Assembly: GCA_024277355.1 (NCBI GenBank)
Contig: JAJRVL010000005.1
Location: 1-32,000, forward strand
DNA length: 32,000 nucleotides
Direction of reading: 5' to 3'
Origin: an archaeon
Lineage (GTDB): Archaea; Iainarchaeota; Iainarchaeia; Iainarchaeales; 1-14-0-10-31-34
The position numbers and the translations under genes are program-made. The notes below the pieces were generated by a model, which did not search any database, was not told the DNA's origin, and worked only from the letters and a program-made list of their open reading frames with translations. Shown here one piece after another: positions 6,420-25,480 of the stretch; the first letter of the stretch is position 1, and each line of letters begins with the position of its first letter.

Positions 6420-7580
6420 ATGAAGAAATTAGTTTTATTTTTGTTTTTTTTGATTGTGTCTGTTTCAACAGTTTTTGCTTATCCTGAATGTTTAGATATA
6501 TCGGCTTTACAGATTAATGCTCCTGCTGATGATTATACTTTAGCTCAGGGAAGTGAATTTGAATTTTCAATAACTATAACTTCTACTGATCCTTTTGGGC
6601 CAGGATACTGCACTACTAATGCAACTTTTGAGCATGACCAAAGAATTGGTTCTTTTATCAGAATAAAAGATCCTTTATTTGATCCGGGAAACAATGATTT
6701 AAACACTGTTTATTCAAGTTTAATTGCTGTTGATGTTAATTCTGTTGCTTATGGTTATGCAACAATTTTTGTTCAATGCAATACAGCAGGAGATTATCAA
6801 TTAAGATTTTCAGTTACAGGCGGAGGAGGAGTACAAAGCACTCCAGTTACAATCCATTGCCTGTCATCTAACACGCCTCCAAACGGAAATTTCATTAAAC
6901 CGTCTTCTCCTTCTTTTGTTTACGGGTATTCTTACAGAGTTGAATGGGATGCATTTGATGCTGAAGGAGATTCTTTAAGTTATGATATTGAATGGAATGG
7001 CCCTACAAGTGGAACAGATACTACAACAAATAAATATTATGATTTAACAGGCTTATCTTTAGGAGATTATACTTTTGATGTAAATATAAGTGACGGAGTT
7101 AATCCTGAAGTTAAAATTTCAAGCAGTACTTTAACAGTAAAAAAACCATTAAACACTCTTTCAGTTTCAGGTTTAAGCATTACTCCTGAAGTAATTTATG
7201 GAGATGAAGCATTAGATGTAAATTTAACTTTAAGAAACAACTCATCAAATGAAGTTGACATTAATGTTTTGTTTTACAATGATGATTTCCTTCCAAATCC
7301 TGCTCCAAGCAGAGTAATAAATATTGCGCCTTATTCTAAAGCAGATTTTTCAGTTCATCAGGATTTTTCTTCTAATAATATTGGTGCAGGAGACTATAAT
7401 GTAAGAATTTATGCAGAAGAATTTTTTTCAGGAACTTCAAATCCAACAGGAAATGTTCTGACTTCTTTTGCAAATTTCACGGTTTTAGCAGACAAAAAAT
7501 CTGTTGCTTTGCCTGAAACAAACTTTTTCTTTGTTTTATTGATTGCTTTGACTGTAATAGGAATAATAAACAGAAAATAA
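6420..7580 (+). CDS. Secreted or surface-anchored protein with PKD/CARDB-like Ig-fold repeats and a C-terminal sorting signal
   Basis: N-terminal signal peptide (MKKLVLFLFFLIVSVSTVFA). PKD-like segment (WDAFDAEGDSLSYDIEWNG...GDYTFDVNISDG). CARDB-like segment (LSVSGLSITPEVIYGDEALDVNLTLRNNSSNEVDINV). The C-terminus is LPETN followed by FFFVLLIALTVIGII and then NRK. Confidence 0.7.
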   Translation: MKKLVLFLFFLIVSVSTVFAYPECLDISALQINAPADDYTLAQGSEFEFSITITSTDPFGPGYCTTNATFEHDQRIGSFIRIKDPLFDPGNNDLNTVYSSLIAVDVNSVAYGYATIFVQCNTAGDYQLRFSVTGGGGVQSTPVTIHCLSSNTPPNGNFIKPSSPSFVYGYSYRVEWDAFDAEGDSLSYDIEWNGPTSGTDTTTNKYYDLTGLSLGDYTFDVNISDGVNPEVKISSSTLTVKKPLNTLSVSGLSITPEVIYGDEALDVNLTLRNNSSNEVDINVLFYNDDFLPNPAPSRVINIAPYSKADFSVHQDFSSNNIGAGDYNVRIYAEEFFSGTSNPTGNVLTSFANFTVLADKKSVALPETNFFFVLLIALTVIGIINRK

Positions 7581-8725: not shown

Positions 8726-9778
8726 ATGAAATTATTCTCTGGTAATTATAAATTGTATTTAATTGTGCCTTTTATACTTACATTACTTTTTGCGTTTATT
8801 GTTGGAGTTTCTCCTGGAGTAAAACAGGGAATTGACTTAAAAGGCGGAACACAAATTATTATTCGTTCTAATGTTGCTGTTGATTCAGCTGAATTAAAAT
8901 TATTGCTTGAAGAAGAATTTGAATTCATTGATTTAACTGTTAATTCAATTTCCTCTCCTACAAGCAAAGGAGTTAATATTCAATTTGCAGGAGAAAATAC
9001 TTTAATTAAAGCAAAAAAAGAATTAGATTTAGCTAAAGACTTATTTGATTCTAATCCTTCTCAATCTGAAATTCATGCATTAAATTCAATTTCATTGTCT
9101 TCTAAATTTTCTGAAATAAAAGATGAAGAATTAAAAGGAAAGGATTTAATTGAAAAAGCAGATGTAGTTTATTCCAAAGCAAAAGATGATTTTATTGAAA
9201 AAATTAAATCTATTACTGCAATTAATTTTTCTTTGAATTCAGATTTCTTTTTTTCTACTAAAGAAGTTCCTCCTGTTTTAGGAAAAACTTTTTGGGATAA
9301 TGCATTGTTTGTCAGTATTATTGCTTTTATTGGAATAATTATTGTTATCTTTTTCTTTTTCCGTGAATTTGTTCCTTCAATTGCAGTTATTTTTGCAGGA
9401 TTTTTTGATGTATTGACTGCTTTAGCTTTAATGTCTTTAACAGGAATTGCTTTAGGATTAAATTCTATTCCTGCTTTGCTTTTATTAGTTGGTTATAGTG
9501 TTGACACAGACATTCTTCTTACAACCCGTTTACTTAAAAGAAAAGATAAAACTCCAAGAGAAAGAGCAATTGATTCAATGAAAACAGGATTAACTATGAC
9601 TTTTACTACTATTGCTGCTGTTTGTGTAATGTTAATTATGTCTTATTTTTATCAGATTGAAGTAATGTTTAATATTGCTGCAGTAATTTTATTTGGTTTA
9701 ATTGGAGACTTAATTGTTACATGGATGATGAATGCTCCAATATTATTATGGTATGTTGAAAGGAAGCGAAAAGCATGA
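8726..9778 (+). CDS. secF: Protein-export membrane protein SecF
   Basis: GIDLKGGTQIII near the N-terminus. C-terminal TM bundle with VGYSVDTDILLTTRLLKR...RERAIDSMKTGLTMTFTT. GGTG lies 5 nt upstream of the ATG. Confidence 0.85.
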   Translation: MKLFSGNYKLYLIVPFILTLLFAFIVGVSPGVKQGIDLKGGTQIIIRSNVAVDSAELKLLLEEEFEFIDLTVNSISSPTSKGVNIQFAGENTLIKAKKELDLAKDLFDSNPSQSEIHALNSISLSSKFSEIKDEELKGKDLIEKADVVYSKAKDDFIEKIKSITAINFSLNSDFFFSTKEVPPVLGKTFWDNALFVSIIAFIGIIIVIFFFFREFVPSIAVIFAGFFDVLTALALMSLTGIALGLNSIPALLLLVGYSVDTDILLTTRLLKRKDKTPRERAIDSMKTGLTMTFTTIAAVCVMLIMSYFYQIEVMFNIAAVILFGLIGDLIVTWMMNAPILLWYVERKRKA

Positions 9779-11394
9779 GAGACTTATTTAGAAACTGGAA
9801 AGTAGTTTTATTGGTTGTATTTTTATTTTTAGCATTACTTTCACTTTCATTTAACGGCTTAAAATATGGCATTGACTTTAATGGAGGAACACAATTTCAG
9901 ATTCACTTAGCAAAACCTTTAGAAAATTCAGCTGAAATCGCTCAAGTTACTTCAATTATTTCTCATAGATTAGACTGGACCGGCTTAAAGGATACTAAAG
10001 TTACTGCTTGGGGTAATGAATTTATTATTGCTCAAGTAGCTGAAACTTCTCCTGAACAAGTTGAAAGAATTGAATTATTATTAAAAAAACAAGGAAGATT
10101 TGAAGCAACATTAAATGGAAAAACAATTTTTTCTGGTTCAGATATTTTGCATATTTTTAAGGATACATCTAAAGGTTATGGAATAATTAAACAAGGAGAG
10201 TCTTTTGAATGGCGTTTGCCTTTTTTGTTAAGTGAAGAAGCAGGACAAAGATTTACTGAAATGACTTTTCATCAATGCACTATTTCTGGTTTTGATGCTT
10301 CTCAAGGAAAAACTTATGATTGTGAAAAAACTTATTTTTTCATTGACCGTCCTTCAGCAGTAATTTTAATGCCTTCTTTAATGCATTCAAAAAACAAAGA
10401 TTTATTATTGACTGGAAATTTAACTGAAAATATTCCTCAAGGAACAGACATAGATGAATTACTTTTAAATGCACAGACTCCATTAATTTTAACTGATTCA
10501 AATTTATCTGATTCAGATAAAAATGAATTAATGAATTATTCTAAGACTTTTGAAAATGTAATTATTCCTTCAAATACTTTTTCTGAACAATTTTTGCTTG
10601 ACTTAAATGCTTTTGGATTTAAAGTAACTGAACTGGAACAAGAAAAAAATATTCCTTGGATTTGGAATGCTGTCGGCGTAAGAGAAGTTATTTCTTTAAG
10701 TGAAGACATAACAAACATGAATCCTTATATTGAAGATGTAAAAGATGCAAAAAGATATTCTGAATTAGTTATCAGAGGTTTTGGTTCAGATGAACAAGAT
10801 GCATTAACTAAACTTTCAAATTTAGCTATTTTGCTTGAATCAGGTTCTCTTCCTATTGGTGTAGAATCAATTGGAAAAGAAACAATTTCTCCTAATTTAG
10901 GAGAAGAATTTTTGTTTGTTGTTGCTTTAATGGGAATAATTTCTTTGATTGTAGTTATGTTAGTTTTATTTATCCGATACAAAGAACCAAGATTAATTAT
11001 TCCTATTGGGTTTACTATTTTTTCTGAAGTAGTTTTAATTTTAGGTTTTGCTTCTTTTATTAAATGGAATTTAGATTTAGCATCTCTTGCAGGAATTGTT
11101 GCTGCAGTTGGAACTGGAGTTGACCATCAGATTATTATTTCAGATGAATTATTAAGAAAAGAAGCAGATTATGAAACCTCTTTTGTTAACAGGGTTAAAA
11201 GAGCTTTTTTCATTATTTTTGCTGCTGCTGCCACTTCTTTGGTTACAATGGCTCCAATAATTTTATTTGGTTTTGGTTTAGGAAAACTTGTAGGTTTTGC
11301 AATAACTACTATTTCAGGAGTATTAATTGGTGTTTTTATTACAAGACCTGCTTTTGGAGAAATAGCAAAATACTTGTTAACTAAATCAAAGTAA
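9775..11394 (+). CDS. secD: Protein-export membrane protein SecD
   Basis: GIDFNGGTQFQIHL, a large periplasmic-type loop, then a TM bundle with VGTGVDHQIIISDELLRKE. Its start overlaps the secF stop by 4 nt (ATGA). Confidence 0.85.
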   Translation: MRDLFRNWKVVLLVVFLFLALLSLSFNGLKYGIDFNGGTQFQIHLAKPLENSAEIAQVTSIISHRLDWTGLKDTKVTAWGNEFIIAQVAETSPEQVERIELLLKKQGRFEATLNGKTIFSGSDILHIFKDTSKGYGIIKQGESFEWRLPFLLSEEAGQRFTEMTFHQCTISGFDASQGKTYDCEKTYFFIDRPSAVILMPSLMHSKNKDLLLTGNLTENIPQGTDIDELLLNAQTPLILTDSNLSDSDKNELMNYSKTFENVIIPSNTFSEQFLLDLNAFGFKVTELEQEKNIPWIWNAVGVREVISLSEDITNMNPYIEDVKDAKRYSELVIRGFGSDEQDALTKLSNLAILLESGSLPIGVESIGKETISPNLGEEFLFVVALMGIISLIVVMLVLFIRYKEPRLIIPIGFTIFSEVVLILGFASFIKWNLDLASLAGIVAAVGTGVDHQIIISDELLRKEADYETSFVNRVKRAFFIIFAAAATSLVTMAPIILFGFGLGKLVGFAITTISGVLIGVFITRPAFGEIAKYLLTKSK

Positions 11395-11427
11395 TCTTTT
11401 TTAATTACAAAAAACACTATTTGTTTA

Positions 11428-12024
11428 ATGAAACCCAAAAAAAGACCTGTAATAAAGCCAAGAAAAAGACTTTCAGTAAAAAAACAATTAGAGTCAACTA
11501 AAGGATTAACTAAAAGAGAATTAGTTTGGGCAAAACAAAAAAGAAAAAAACTAAAACAAGTTAAATCAACTGGAAACAAAAAACAAGCATTAATTCAATT
11601 AAAAGATTTTCCCAAGTCCCATTTTTTTATTCATCAACATCTTCCAGTTGAAAAAAGAATTTATTCTACTGGATTGCCTAGTGCAGGAGATATTGCATTC
11701 TTATCTGCTTTAATGCGAAAAGGAAAAGCAAAAACTGGTGTTTTAGCTTCAACTAATAATAAAGGAAAAATAACAGGTTATACTTTTTTTAAATTAAATA
11801 AACCTTTATCAAAAATAGACACTAATTTTTTGTCAATGATTATTGATAATGTTTTTGAAAAAGAAGTTAATGCAAGAACTTTAATTGATTACAGTAAAAC
11901 TCTTAAATCTGTCTTAAAAAAAGGAGGATATATTTTAACTCAAAAAACTGTTGCTATTCAGGGTTATAAATTTAACAAATCAGTAGGTTCTTTTGTAAAA
12001 ACAAGAAAAACTAAATCAAAGTAA
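11428..12024 (+). CDS. Hypothetical protein with a Lys/Arg-rich N-terminal tail
   Basis: 198-aa ORF 33 nt after secD on the same strand. The N-terminal ~55 aa are highly basic (MKPKKRPVIKPRKRLSVKK...). The C-terminal LKSVLKKGGYIL resembles the LKSGGKLLI segment of the ORF at 14060. No family recognised. Confidence 0.5.
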   Translation: MKPKKRPVIKPRKRLSVKKQLESTKGLTKRELVWAKQKRKKLKQVKSTGNKKQALIQLKDFPKSHFFIHQHLPVEKRIYSTGLPSAGDIAFLSALMRKGKAKTGVLASTNNKGKITGYTFFKLNKPLSKIDTNFLSMIIDNVFEKEVNARTLIDYSKTLKSVLKKGGYILTQKTVAIQGYKFNKSVGSFVKTRKTKSK

Positions 12025-12513
12025 CTCGTTGAATTCTTCTACTTTAGCTATCTTTTTTGTAAAGTAATACCATAACATGACAATAAATAATGCAGTAGCC
12101 ATCCATGAAATTTCATGTACAATTGAAATCAAATGAACTCCATAATTAATTCCTACCCATAACACAAAATAAATTCTGATTAAATTTAATACAAACATTA
12201 TTGCTGATGCAGCCAAAAAAATCTTGATTTTTTGTTTGATTTCTGGTTTGCTTAAAGAAAAAATTATTGCAGCAATAATGCTAATACTTACTAATCCAGT
12301 ACAAGAAGGATTAATTAATATTTTTTGGGTTTCAATAAACATTAAGTTTCCTTCAACCGGAAGATTAAATGCATTTGCCTGAATTAATGCAATCCATTTC
12401 TGAATAAAAGTTGTTGGAATAGTCCAAACTAAAAAATGCAAAACAGAAAAAATTAAAGTAAATTTAATTAAAAATAAAAGTGTTTTTTTGTTTCCTTCAA
12501 TGAATTTATGCAT
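12016..12513 (-). CDS. Exosortase/archaeosortase-family transpeptidase, minimal 165-aa form
   Basis: Polytopic membrane protein. It has the family's Cys/Arg/His arrangement in the expected order and context: INPSCTGLVSISI, then NLIRIYFVLW, then VHEISWMATALF. Its ATG is 1 nt after the carS stop. Confidence 0.7.
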   Translation of the reverse strand: MHKFIEGNKKTLLFLIKFTLIFSVLHFLVWTIPTTFIQKWIALIQANAFNLPVEGNLMFIETQKILINPSCTGLVSISIIAAIIFSLSKPEIKQKIKIFLAASAIMFVLNLIRIYFVLWVGINYGVHLISIVHEISWMATALFIVMLWYYFTKKIAKVEEFNELL

Positions 12514-12514
12514 T

Positions 12515-13027
12515 TTACCACGGAACCTTTTTTATTTTAAGTTTAAATGCAAGAAAATTACTTGCTTTATGTGCAATTAACGTAATAAAACAAATTAACA
12601 AAAACATTTCAGCTGAAACAGAATAAATTAAGCTTCCAAATAATATTACTCCGACAACAAAATCTAATTGGTCTAAAAGTAATATTGGCTTGCCTGTTGT
12701 AATGTCAAATCTTCTTTTAACAAAACTTGCAGCCACATCTCCCATTATTGCTCCAAAAGAAAGAAGTATTCCATAAAAAACATACTGAGGAATTATTGGA
12801 ACATTTCCTTGAAAATAAAAATCTAAAATTAAAACTGAAATTATTCCTGAAATAACTCCAAAAAAAGTTCCTTTAATTGATTTTCCTTTTCCAAACAAAG
12901 GTTTTTCATCAAAAAAATTCAAGTTAAAATCCATTTGTGTTTTTCCTGCAAAAAGCATTGCAGAAGAATTAGCAACATATAATGGAATTAAAATTAAAAT
13001 TATTTCAATTAAAAAAGAATAACTCAT
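12515..13027 (-). CDS. carS: CDP-archaeol synthase (CDP-2,3-bis-O-geranylgeranyl-sn-glycerol synthase)
   Basis: 170 aa. LIPLYVANSSAMLF, GKGKSIKGTFFG, GAIMGDVAASFVKRRF, LLLDQLDFVVG and a C-terminal KKVPW match the CarS (DUF46) pattern. Confidence 0.85.
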   Translation of the reverse strand: MSYSFLIEIILILIPLYVANSSAMLFAGKTQMDFNLNFFDEKPLFGKGKSIKGTFFGVISGIISVLILDFYFQGNVPIIPQYVFYGILLSFGAIMGDVAASFVKRRFDITTGKPILLLDQLDFVVGVILFGSLIYSVSAEMFLLICFITLIAHKASNFLAFKLKIKKVPW

Positions 13028-13143
13028 TTCTTCGCCTTTTTTTTATTAAGTGTGTTTGGTTATTTAATATTTATTACTGTTTTTTGTTTAAATAGTTTTC
13101 TTAACTCAATCCTTTTTTATTTTTAACATGTGTTAATTGTTTT

Positions 13144-14031
13144 ATGAATAAAATTTTTATTGCAGTAATTTTAGGATTAATTTTTTTAGTGTTATTAGCT
13201 TTAAGTTTTTCTGCTTTGTTTTCTGGATTAAATGAAGAAATAGCAGTAATTCCAATTAAAGGAGAAATCTCTTCTTCTGGAGATAGTTTTTCTTCTTCTA
13301 TGAGTTCAACTGAAATCGCAGAAAAAATAAAGCAAGCTGATTCAAATCCATTAATTAAAGCAATTTTTTTAGATATTGATTCCGGAGGAGGAAGTGTTGT
13401 TGCAACAAAAGAAATAGTTTATGCTGTAAGAGAAACAGAAAAACCAATTACTGCATATATTGGAGAAATAGGTGCGTCAGGAGCTTATTATATTGCAGCA
13501 TCTTCAGATTTAATTATTGCAGATGAAGATTCTATAACAGGAAGTATTGGGGTAATAAGTGTTTCAGCTAATGTTACTGGTTTATTAGAAAAACTGGGAA
13601 TTAAAGTTACTGTTTTAAAAGAAGGAGAATTCAAAGATATTGGTTCTCCATTTAAAGAATTAAATGAAAAAGAAAAAGAAATTTTAAATGAATTAATTTC
13701 TGAAGTAGCAGTAAACTTCAAAAAAGATATTTTAGATTTCAGAAAAGAAAAAATGCAGGAAGAAAAATTTAATCAAATAGCTGATGGAAGAATTCTTTCA
13801 GGAAGAAAAGCAAAAGAAATAGGTTTAATTGATTTTACTGGAAGTAAAAGTTTTGCAATAAAAAAAACAGCTGAATTAGCAGGCATTAAAGGAAAACCTT
13901 CATTAAAGTATTTTAAAAAAGAACAATCTGATTTATTTTCTTTGTTTTCTAAAATGGGTTATTCTTTTGGTTCTGGTTTTGTTTCTTCACTTAAGGCATC
14001 TAATTCTAATTTCCAGTTATATGCAAAATAA
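13144..14031 (+). CDS. sppA: Signal peptide peptidase SppA (S49 family, 36K type)
   Basis: N-terminal TM anchor, then IDSGGGSV, YIGEIGASGAYYIAASSDLIIADEDSITGSIGVI and a GRILSGRKAKEIGLID motif. Confidence 0.9.
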   Translation: MNKIFIAVILGLIFLVLLALSFSALFSGLNEEIAVIPIKGEISSSGDSFSSSMSSTEIAEKIKQADSNPLIKAIFLDIDSGGGSVVATKEIVYAVRETEKPITAYIGEIGASGAYYIAASSDLIIADEDSITGSIGVISVSANVTGLLEKLGIKVTVLKEGEFKDIGSPFKELNEKEKEILNELISEVAVNFKKDILDFRKEKMQEEKFNQIADGRILSGRKAKEIGLIDFTGSKSFAIKKTAELAGIKGKPSLKYFKKEQSDLFSLFSKMGYSFGSGFVSSLKASNSNFQLYAK

Positions 14032-22410: not shown

Positions 22411-22905
22411 ATGGAAGAAAATGAAAGAAAACTAATTGCATTTAATCATAGATTTCAGTTAACAGGAAAAATTCATATTCCTGCTGCTACTAAGCATAGA
22501 TTTCAGGTTATAATAAGAAAAGTTGAACAGCCTTTTTCAACGCAAGCAGATGAAGAATTTAATTGGTTGTTAGAGTGTTTAGGCTTTTTTGAGCCTATAG
22601 ATAAAGGAAAAACAGCTGCTTTAGTGTTTAAGGAATTAGTTAAAGCCACTGAGAGTGGAAGATTATTAACTTCAACTGAATTAGCTGAAAGAGTCGGTAT
22701 GAGCAGAGGAGCAGTAATTAATCATTTAAATAATCTTCAAAGATCTGGCCTTGTATTAAAGGAAGGAAGCAGATATATGTCCAGAAGCAAGTCAATGTTT
22801 CGCATGATTAAAGAATTACAGGATGAAATTAATTTAGTTTTTAAAAGAATGGAACAAACTGCAAAGGAATTAGACCAAGAAATGGGCTTGTTTTTAAAGG
22901 ATTAA
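22411..22905 (+). CDS. Winged-helix (ArsR/TrmB-like) transcriptional regulator, divergent from grpE-dnaK-dnaJ
   Basis: The HTH segment LTSTELAERVGMSRGAVINHLNNLQRSGLVLKEG is followed by a helical tail. The track starts at TTG 22393. I prefer ATG 22411 (MEENERK...). Confidence 0.6.
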   Translation: MEENERKLIAFNHRFQLTGKIHIPAATKHRFQVIIRKVEQPFSTQADEEFNWLLECLGFFEPIDKGKTAALVFKELVKATESGRLLTSTELAERVGMSRGAVINHLNNLQRSGLVLKEGSRYMSRSKSMFRMIKELQDEINLVFKRMEQTAKELDQEMGLFLKD

Positions 22906-24299
22906 ACTCTTTTAAATTTTGACTGAAAATGCCTTAAGATTGGACTTTCAAATTCAAATTTTAATCCTTTGATTTTGTCTTTTCTTTCCTTTATGTTTTT
23001 CATTGCTTCAATAATATAATCCATATGTTCTTTCAGATAAACTCTTCTTGGAATAGTCAACCTCATTAAATCCATTTCAGGCATTTTATCTTTTCCTGTT
23101 TTTGGATCTCTTCCAGCTAATAATGTTCCTATTTCTACTGCTCTAATTCCTGCTTCAATATAAAGTTCAGTGCAAAGTGTATGTGAAGGAAATTGTTCTT
23201 GCGGAATATGAGCCAAAAATTTTTTGCCGTCAACAAAAACTGCATGACCTCCAATTGGTTTCATTATTGGAATTCCAATTTTATTTAATTCTTCTCCTAA
23301 ATATTTAACTTGTCCAATTCTGTATTTTAAATAGTCTTCTTGTATTCCTTCTTTTAATCCAACTGCAATTGCTTCTAAATCTCTTCCGGCTAATCCTCCA
23401 TAAGTTGGAAAACCTTCAAATAAAATTCCAAAAGGAATGCTTTTTTCATAAAGTTCTTTTTCTTTAAATGCAATTAATCCGCCAATATTAACTATTGCAT
23501 CTTTTTTTGCGCTCATTGTGCATCCATCAGCATAAGAAAACATTTCTAAAACAATTTCTGAAATTGATTTATTTTCAAAACCTTTTTCTCTTTGTTTAAT
23601 GAAAAAAGCATTTTCTGCAAATCTTGCTGCATCAATAAAAAAATAAACTTCAAACTTTTTGCATAACTCGCTTGTTTTTTTTATGTTTTCCATTGAAACC
23701 GGCTGGCCTCCTCCGGAATTACAAGTAATTGTATGCAGAACATAACCTATATTTCCTTTATTTTTTTATAAAACTTCTTCTAATTTTTTTAAATCAATAT
23801 TTCCTTTAAATGGAAGTTCTTTTTCACAGTCAAATGCTTCTTTTATTACACAATTAACAGGAATTCCTTTTTTGTGCTCAATATGGGCTGTTGTTGTGTC
23901 AAAATGAATGTTTCCAGGAATTATGTTTCCTTCTTTTATTAAAACTGCATCTAATATGTGTTCTGCTGCTCTTCCCTGATGTACAGGCAGAACAAAATCA
24001 AATCCAATTACATCTTTAACTGAATTTTTAAAGTTATCAAAACTTTTTGCTCCGGCATAACTTTCATCTGCTTTAATCATTGCAGACCATTGCTCCTGAG
24101 ACATTGCATTTGTTCCTGAATCAGTTAATAAATCAATAAAAATTTCATTTGATTTAAGCAAAAAAATATTTAAGCCTGCTTTTTCTATTGCTTTAATTCT
24201 TTTTTCTTTTGAAATTAGTTTTATTGGTTCAATGCTTTTAATTTTAAAATTCGGAATAATATAATTCAATTTTTCACAACCCTGCTTTTTTTTAAACAT
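22902..24299 (-). pseudogene. Tryptophanase/tyrosine phenol-lyase family (beta-eliminating lyase) gene interrupted by one in-frame TAA
   Basis: Track ORFs 23766-24299 (N-terminal part: FIDLLTDSGTNAMS, PVHQGRAAE) and 22902-23693 (C-terminal part: DAARFAENAFFIKQRE, PLP-lysine motif MSAKKDA, FPTYGGLAG, LRLTIPRRVY) are in the same frame. The 72 nt between them translate as KNKGNIGYVLHTITCNSGGGQPVS, which is the expected conserved segment. The only defect is TAA at 23766-23768. Confidence 0.85.
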
Positions 24300-25192: not shown

Positions 25193-25480
25193 ATGATTAA
25201 AGAAAAGATTTCAAAAGAAAAAACAGAATTGATAAATAAAAAAAACAGGCTTAAAGCAGATTTTGCTGAAGCAAAACAAGATACAAGGCTTTTTGCTATT
25301 TTATTTATTGAGTTTGCTTTGTCAATGGCAGTAGTATTAAGCATTTATCTTTATCTGGATCCGGAAACAAATCTTGTTCCTTTTCCTTTAAATATTATTT
25401 CTTTTGCTTTTCTTATGATTTTGATGTATTTTGTTTTTAACAAAACAAAAGAATTCAGAGAAGAAAGAAAATTGCGTTAA
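25193..25480 (+). CDS. Hypothetical small membrane protein (charged N-terminal helix plus two TM segments)
   Basis: 95-aa ORF 17 nt after the HExxH protein on the same strand. No family recognised. Confidence 0.4.
   Translation: MIKEKISKEKTELINKKNRLKADFAEAKQDTRLFAILFIEFALSMAVVLSIYLYLDPETNLVPFPLNIISFAFLMILMYFVFNKTKEFREERKLR

Follow-up and report, generated by a model that had tools for sequence, protein, structure and literature searches.

A recurrent C-terminal PETN tail and its candidate archaeosortase in the Iainarchaeales

The LPETN protein and the archaeosortase gene of the window

The DNA analysed in this work (the window) is a stretch of 32,000 nucleotides, contig C3:1-32000, from the genome of a DPANN archaeon of the order Iainarchaeales (G000; 1.13 Mb in 11 contigs, 28% G+C, estimated to be 96% complete), which encodes a secreted surface protein of 386 amino acids (aa), predicted to be the substrate of an archaeosortase, and an archaeosortase-family enzyme. 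The protein is encoded by an open reading frame (ORF) at 6420..7580 (+) and comprises three beta-sandwich domains which a short linker joins to a C-terminal sorting tail. It starts with a predicted Sec-type signal peptide (about residues 1-20; 6420..6479, +) composed of MKK, a hydrophobic core and VFA, and reads at its C-terminus ...SVA-LPETN-FFFVLLIALTVIGII-NRK-stop, as the initial annotation had described it. Within this tail the signature LPETN (residues 364-368; 7509..7523, +), the core of which is P-E and which is invariant in the seven tails of this type in the genome, is followed by a 15-residue hydrophobic, predicted membrane-spanning segment (7524..7568, +) and by NRK (7569..7577, +), a predicted basic cytoplasmic tail placed ahead of the stop codon; K/R clusters close all of the tails. 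The AlphaFold model, which was built from a shallow 6-sequence alignment and has a mean predicted local distance difference test (pLDDT) score of 74.7, shows a helix at residues 2-19, beta-sandwiches at about 25-150, 155-241 and 247-356, a linker of low confidence which includes the motif (362-366), and a C-terminal helix at 366-385. The body of the protein had been labelled PKD/CARDB-like, and this label was not confirmed: no Pfam match was found above threshold and a Foldseek search with the model returned only generic tandem immunoglobulin (Ig), fibronectin type III (fn3) and macroglobulin-like matches. The tail was retained in all five homologues of the protein.

The archaeosortase-family gene reported to lie 4.4 kb away was found at 12016..12513 (-). 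Its 165-aa product (enzyme 1), which we propose as the cognate processing enzyme of the tail, matched the family models TIGR04178 (49.7 bits, cut-off 23) and PF09721 (34.1 bits, cut-off 25.7). Placing it in a named subfamily had to be rejected, all scores being far below the respective cut-offs: ArtA (29.9 bits against 75), ArtC (27.3 against 100), ArtD (31.4 against 125), ArtE (32.0 against 95), ArtF (13.4 against 150), pacearchaeosortase (30.7 against 80) and heimdallarchaeosortase (19.7 against 130). Enzyme 1 therefore represents an unnamed subfamily. Alignment of enzyme 1 with 13 homologues showed C71 (in a CTGL motif), N110, R113 and H133 to be invariant in the 14 sequences. Orthologues were found in 140 of the 151 genomes of the order that were searched; homologues in public databases are annotated simply as "archaeosortase/exosortase family protein" and belong to metagenome-assembled genomes (MAGs) labelled Diapherotrites, Iainarchaeum or Micrarchaeota, with Candidatus Iainarchaeum andersonii among the relatives.

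The tail family in the genome and across the order

A list of all ORFs of the genome with a hydrophobic stretch and K/R at their end, drawn up without any assumption about the motif, yielded a single recurrent tail family, namely the LPETN tails. In ORFs of 60 aa or more the pentapeptide occurs eight times, where composition predicts 0.29 occurrences; in seven of these eight cases it lies 21-31 residues from the C-terminus, with a hydrophobic segment and K/R after it. The initial annotation had allowed for a tail unique to one protein; it is in fact carried by seven proteins in the genome (386-931 aa) and by many in the relatives. Six of the seven start with a clear signal peptide and the seventh begins at a contig edge. 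In the alignment of the seven tails L-P-E-T-N are the only invariant positions. As to the bodies, there is one paralogous pair and the others show no similarity or are weakly similar in the last domain, PKD domains being present in two LPETN proteins other than the 386-aa protein; the tag is thus a module carried by proteins whose bodies are mostly unrelated. The C-terminal LPETN tail is thus real, recurrent and beyond chance, and its layout of motif, membrane helix and basic cluster on proteins with signal peptides is that of the CTERM class.

Two further sets of ORFs were noted during this survey. A 95-aa ORF of the window (25193-25480, +) lacks a signal peptide and contains DPETN internally, flanked by two hydrophobic segments; it falls outside the C-terminal class and the match is probably a coincidence. 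Two 232-aa ORFs with similar C-terminal helix tails occupy identical offsets at the starts of two contigs (G000:C7:75-774 and G000:C10:75-774); these two contig ends may represent a repeated sequence.

The conservation of the tail was analysed with a profile built from the seven tails of the genome, which was searched in the 151 genomes of the order; the tails of relatives were selected by this LPETN-derived profile and then by a P-[ED] pattern. The profile detected 5-8 tails per genome within the genus and 3-4 per genome in two of three other genera sampled from the family. Other families of the order gave weaker matches, located where large ORFs end. At E<=0.01 the counts of tails at the ends of large ORFs were 8/8 in family f1, 6/6 in f16, 16/16 in f20, 11/13 in f27 and 2/2 in f28. 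Variants read in the relatives include VPETN, IPETN, MPETN, FPETD, APEIN, VPEIN, VPENN, VPEVH and TPELP. In a set of 32 unique tails P and E occupied the second and third positions in every case, the first position was V (11), L (9), I (5), F (2), M (2), A (2) or T (1), the fourth was T (24), I (4) or another residue (4), and the fifth was N (26), P (2), D (2), S (1) or H (1), with G absent at this position from all 32. The motif started 22-33 residues from the C-terminal end and was followed by an uncharged stretch of 15-20 residues. The consensus read from these sequences across the order is [V/L/I]-P-E-[T/I]-N, followed by a predicted membrane helix and a basic tail, and has been named here PETN-CTERM. 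It should be noted that the invariance of P-E is partly built in, because the tails were gathered with an LPETN profile and a P-[ED] pattern; the variability at the L and T positions is not.

Two archaeosortases, two tails and the conserved neighbourhood of enzyme 1

The initial annotation had noted enzyme 1 as the only sorting enzyme visible in the window, and it is not the only archaeosortase of the genome: a second archaeosortase of 162 aa (enzyme 2; G000:C10:91974-92462, L009) is encoded on another contig of the genome. C71, R113 and H133 are also kept in this paralogue and are candidate catalytic residues. With two archaeosortases in one genome the pairing with the PETN tails needed a separate argument, and telling the paralogues apart by the absence of one failed, as both were present in all five of the tail-bearing genomes that were checked closely; enzyme 2 is therefore excluded by distribution and synteny only.

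Genomes were scored as tail-positive when a PETN-type tail was found at E<1e-3, and as having a clear enzyme 1 when a hit was found at E<=1e-18. The co-occurrence check called for in the initial annotation gave a clear enzyme 1 in 60 of the 61 tail-positive genomes, the exception being a fragmented MAG that is 82% complete. Conversely, only one of the 31 genomes with no or a weak enzyme 1 hit was tail-positive, though 22 of the 31 carry enzyme 2. The tails thus sit on several unrelated carrier proteins and co-occur with an enzyme, as in other CTERM systems, with the caveat that the genomes share ancestry and that a profile was used to collect the tails.

Enzyme 2 appears to have a target of its own. 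A 1,508-aa secreted protein (G000:C10:76249-80776, -; L184) and its orthologue in the closed genome G030 end in a second class of tail, FN[IL]PS[LM]PE[GS], which is followed by a helix and basic residues. A profile made from these two tails gave hits in 105 of the 151 genomes, one per genome except for six genomes with two, and the main hit was almost always at the end of an ORF of 1,500-1,650 aa. Families positive for the second tail include f30 (15/15), f22, f25, f11 and f13; for PETN tails these families gave a borderline match at most (f11, E about 0.009). In 28 genomes the second tail was found on the same contig as enzyme 2, at a distance of 2-25 kb. A tail which is present about once per genome and is syntenic with enzyme 2 points to enzyme 2 as a dedicated one-substrate system, and the multi-copy, dispersed PETN class would therefore fall to enzyme 1. 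The PETN tails are thus tentatively assigned to enzyme 1 on the grounds of distribution and elimination.

Enzyme 1 is embedded among export and lipid-activation genes. Directly upstream on the same strand is the gene of the CDP-archaeol synthase CarS (12515..13027, -; NF003114, 164 bits; PF01864, 142.7 bits), genes for a SecF-like (350 aa) and a SecD-like (539 aa) export protein are convergent with enzyme 1 (8726..11394, +; PF02355, PF07549), and an S49 peptidase gene, encoding an SppA-like signal-peptide peptidase, is divergent from carS (13144..14031, +; PF01343, 134.5 bits). Of 30 orthologous loci from the order, 28 have CarS immediately upstream of enzyme 1 and on its strand. Among 33 loci of named Iainarchaeota, CarS is adjacent to enzyme 1 in 32, on the same strand wherever the strand was scored, SecD/SecF are convergent neighbours of the archaeosortase in 29-30, and the S49 peptidase is beside CarS in 19; the arrangement SecF-SecD, archaeosortase-CarS, SppA (8726-14031 in the window) is kept in most of the 33, including that of Ca. 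Iainarchaeum andersonii. A very basic ORF of 198 aa located between SecD and the archaeosortase (11428-12024, +) matches no Pfam or NCBIfam model, and its conservation was seen in only one of the 33 loci. Elsewhere in the window two ORFs of 177 aa and 263 aa on the same strand, 72 nt apart (22902-24299, -), resemble by eye the N- and C-terminal parts of one pyridoxal phosphate (PLP)-dependent lyase and may represent a split or frameshifted gene.

Proposed processing and relation to known sorting systems

In our judgement the PETN tail is probably an exosortase/archaeosortase-type C-terminal sorting signal that is processed by enzyme 1, with enzyme 2 forming a separate, dedicated system. To our knowledge ArtA of Haloferax volcanii is the only archaeosortase system which has been studied experimentally. 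It involves Sec export, C-terminal cleavage which needs the active-site cysteine, and lipid anchoring (PMC7157517, PMC6098224); the active-site residue is Cys173, and processing depends on lipid-synthesis enzymes downstream of CDP-archaeol (PMC7157517). By analogy, a PETN protein would be exported by Sec via its N-terminal signal peptide and briefly retained in the membrane by its C-terminal helix, with the P-E motif predicted to be at the outer face, where it would be recognised by the 165-aa archaeosortase encoded beside CarS. The conserved cysteine C71 may then cut at or near the motif via a thioester, as in the ArtA model, and the new C-terminus might be passed to a membrane lipid derived from CDP-archaeol, a step suggested by the ArtA analogy and by the operon with CarS. 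In the case of the 386-aa protein the three beta-sandwich domains would remain displayed on the cell surface.

Several observations weigh against this interpretation. Tails beyond the genus are biased towards P-E by the LPETN-derived profile that retrieved them, both paralogues occur together in the tail-bearing genomes checked, and the evidence from distribution and synteny is confounded by the shared ancestry of the genomes. About half of the genomes with enzyme 1, including those of f30 and f13, have no PETN tail at E<1e-3. Family f30 is the most marked case: 14 of its 15 genomes have a divergent enzyme 1 homologue (25-30% identical to enzyme 1; 29% in G030), all 15 have enzyme 2, and none is tail-positive. 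The closed f30 genome G030 (51% G+C versus 28% here), which was read whole, showed no PETN tails and no recurrent alternative tail family, the tails seen being the enzyme-2-type tail and a few singletons. The gene of the 386-aa substrate is near enzyme 1 only within the genus (4 of the 33 loci), and this proximity was therefore dropped as evidence of pairing. Cleavage and lipid attachment of the PETN proteins, moreover, are predicted by analogy with Haloferax, the lipid chemistry of which cannot be carried over directly, as discussed below.

An alternative is that the LPETN proteins are ordinary C-terminally anchored membrane proteins which keep their helix, P-E-T-N being a structural or interaction motif next to the membrane and not a cleavage signal. 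This would accommodate the enzyme 1 genomes in which PETN tails were not detected, and a cleavage reading that draws on sequence and analogy leaves it some room; for the Haloferax S-layer glycoprotein too, a fraction has been discussed as possibly anchored by its helix (PMC6098224). We nevertheless think it unlikely, given an invariant pentapeptide held at a fixed distance of 22-33 residues from the C-terminus of mostly unrelated bodies, the short helix of 15-20 residues and the basic tail which follow it, and the presence of a matching enzyme family in the same genomes; such an architecture is the signature by which every known exosortase or archaeosortase signal was identified. It is also conceivable that the tail is an archaeosortase signal but is processed by enzyme 2, or by both enzymes interchangeably. 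The paralogues do share the Cys, Arg and His, they are found together, and the presumed target of enzyme 2 itself has a P-E core. This explanation appears quite improbable, as only one (G054) of the 22 genomes with enzyme 2 and without a clear enzyme 1 was tail-positive, the f30 genomes have enzyme 2 throughout and no PETN tails, and in 28 genomes enzyme 2 is syntenic with one protein of about 1,500 aa that has a different tail, which is the picture given by a system dedicated to one substrate. The reading as a Gram-positive LPXTG-like signal handled by a sortase transpeptidase has in its favour the L-P-x-T-x pentapeptide, which the initial annotation had likened to an LPXTG variant, and the tripartite layout seen in this genome; it is effectively refuted and was rejected, since no match to the unrelated sortase family (PF04203) was found at E<=1 in the genome or above the cut-off in any of the 151 genomes, TIGR01167, the LPXTG model, failed to hit any of the seven tails, and the conservation is the opposite of that in LPXTG, which has a free third position and fixed L, P, T and G.

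With processing by enzyme 1 as the preferred reading, the lipid that would receive the protein deserves comment. In the acceptor model for Haloferax this is archaetidylethanolamine, made by PssA and PssD. No match to the phosphatidylserine decarboxylase family of PssD (PF02666) was found in the genome, and no archaetidylserine synthase of the PssA type: the single CDP-alcohol phosphatidyltransferase (PF01066; G000:C2:295740-296159, -; L183) scores 20 bits against the anchor_synt_A cut-off of 200, and fits best an archaetidylinositol-phosphate synthase (137 bits, below the cut-off of 180). Its gene lies about 2 kb from that of one of the LPETN proteins (C2:298209-301004). The Haloferax model is therefore not directly transferable, which counts against the analogy drawn above, and the failure to find the PssA/PssD route, together with the operon with CarS, leaves room for a different lipid chemistry. 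One version of this, which we hold to be unlikely, is that enzyme 1 and CarS together anchor the PETN proteins to lipid by a mechanism unlike that of Haloferax, with CDP-archaeol or a derived non-amine lipid as donor or acceptor. DPANN cells generally depend on a host and make little lipid themselves; if this applies to the present archaeon too and such a route existed, the archaeol could come from the host cell.

Little is known of the ways in which DPANN archaea, whose life is spent attached to other cells, present proteins on their surface. For the Iainarchaeota a sorting tag has now been defined together with its probable enzyme and its probable substrates, which number 1-8 Ig-like or PKD-like surface proteins per genome, and two parallel archaeosortase systems have been separated within one minimal genome. 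The motif and profile could be used to annotate many "hypothetical" surface proteins, and a minimal enzyme of 165 aa with a short defined tag is attractive for biochemical reconstitution. The conserved coupling of enzyme 1 to CarS, SecDF and SppA and the PssA and PssD functions not found in the genome both bear on the identity of the lipid used by archaeosortases.

Systems in which an archaeosortase is paired with its own CTERM signal are of a well-known kind; the PETN motif and the subfamily of enzyme 1 are not covered by the curated models tested. In a six-frame search of the whole genome at E<=10 none of the seven tails was matched by PEF-CTERM (TIGR03024), PEP-CTERM (TIGR02595) or LPXTG, and hmmscan of the tails alone against NCBIfam gave nothing but a 7.4-bit match to Loki-CTERM, so that filing the tail under a known model (PEF, PEP, PGF or Loki) was rejected. 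A literature search returned no mention of LPETN as a sorting signal, nor of the term "pacearchaeosortase". The suggestion that the tail might define an undescribed archaeosortase motif has thus held up for a tail which is recurrent, conserved, unmatched by these models and found in genomes with enzyme 1 orthologues. Among the known enzymes, ArtD, ArtE and pacearchaeosortase (TIGR04175, TIGR04124 and NF033505) resemble enzyme 1 in their minimal size (about 150-170 aa) and align over the full length, and differ in that enzyme 1 scores far below their cut-offs; the genome has no member of NF033506, the target family of pacearchaeosortase. The PGF-CTERM/ArtA system of H. volcanii shares the conserved Cys and Arg, whereas its motif is PGF and not PETN, its enzyme model is not reached by enzyme 1, and the genomic link here is to CarS itself. 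There is a close likeness to PEP-CTERM with its exosortase (XrtA/EpsH) and to PEF-CTERM with archaeosortase C. PEP-CTERM and PEF-CTERM signals share a P-E core, and this was the pattern set aside in the initial annotation. The differences are that P-E is followed here by T-N and not by P or F, and that enzyme 1, at only 165 aa, falls short of the ArtC cut-off and is linked in an operon to CarS. The similarities extend to the tripartite tail, in which a short helix and then basic residues follow immediately on the Pro-Glu core, to the presence of several signal-peptide substrates per genome, and to the enzyme family itself (TIGR04178, PF09721). Since P-E is invariant in the 32 tails while the L and T positions vary, the PETN tag is best regarded as a relative of PEP-CTERM and PEF-CTERM and not of LPXTG.

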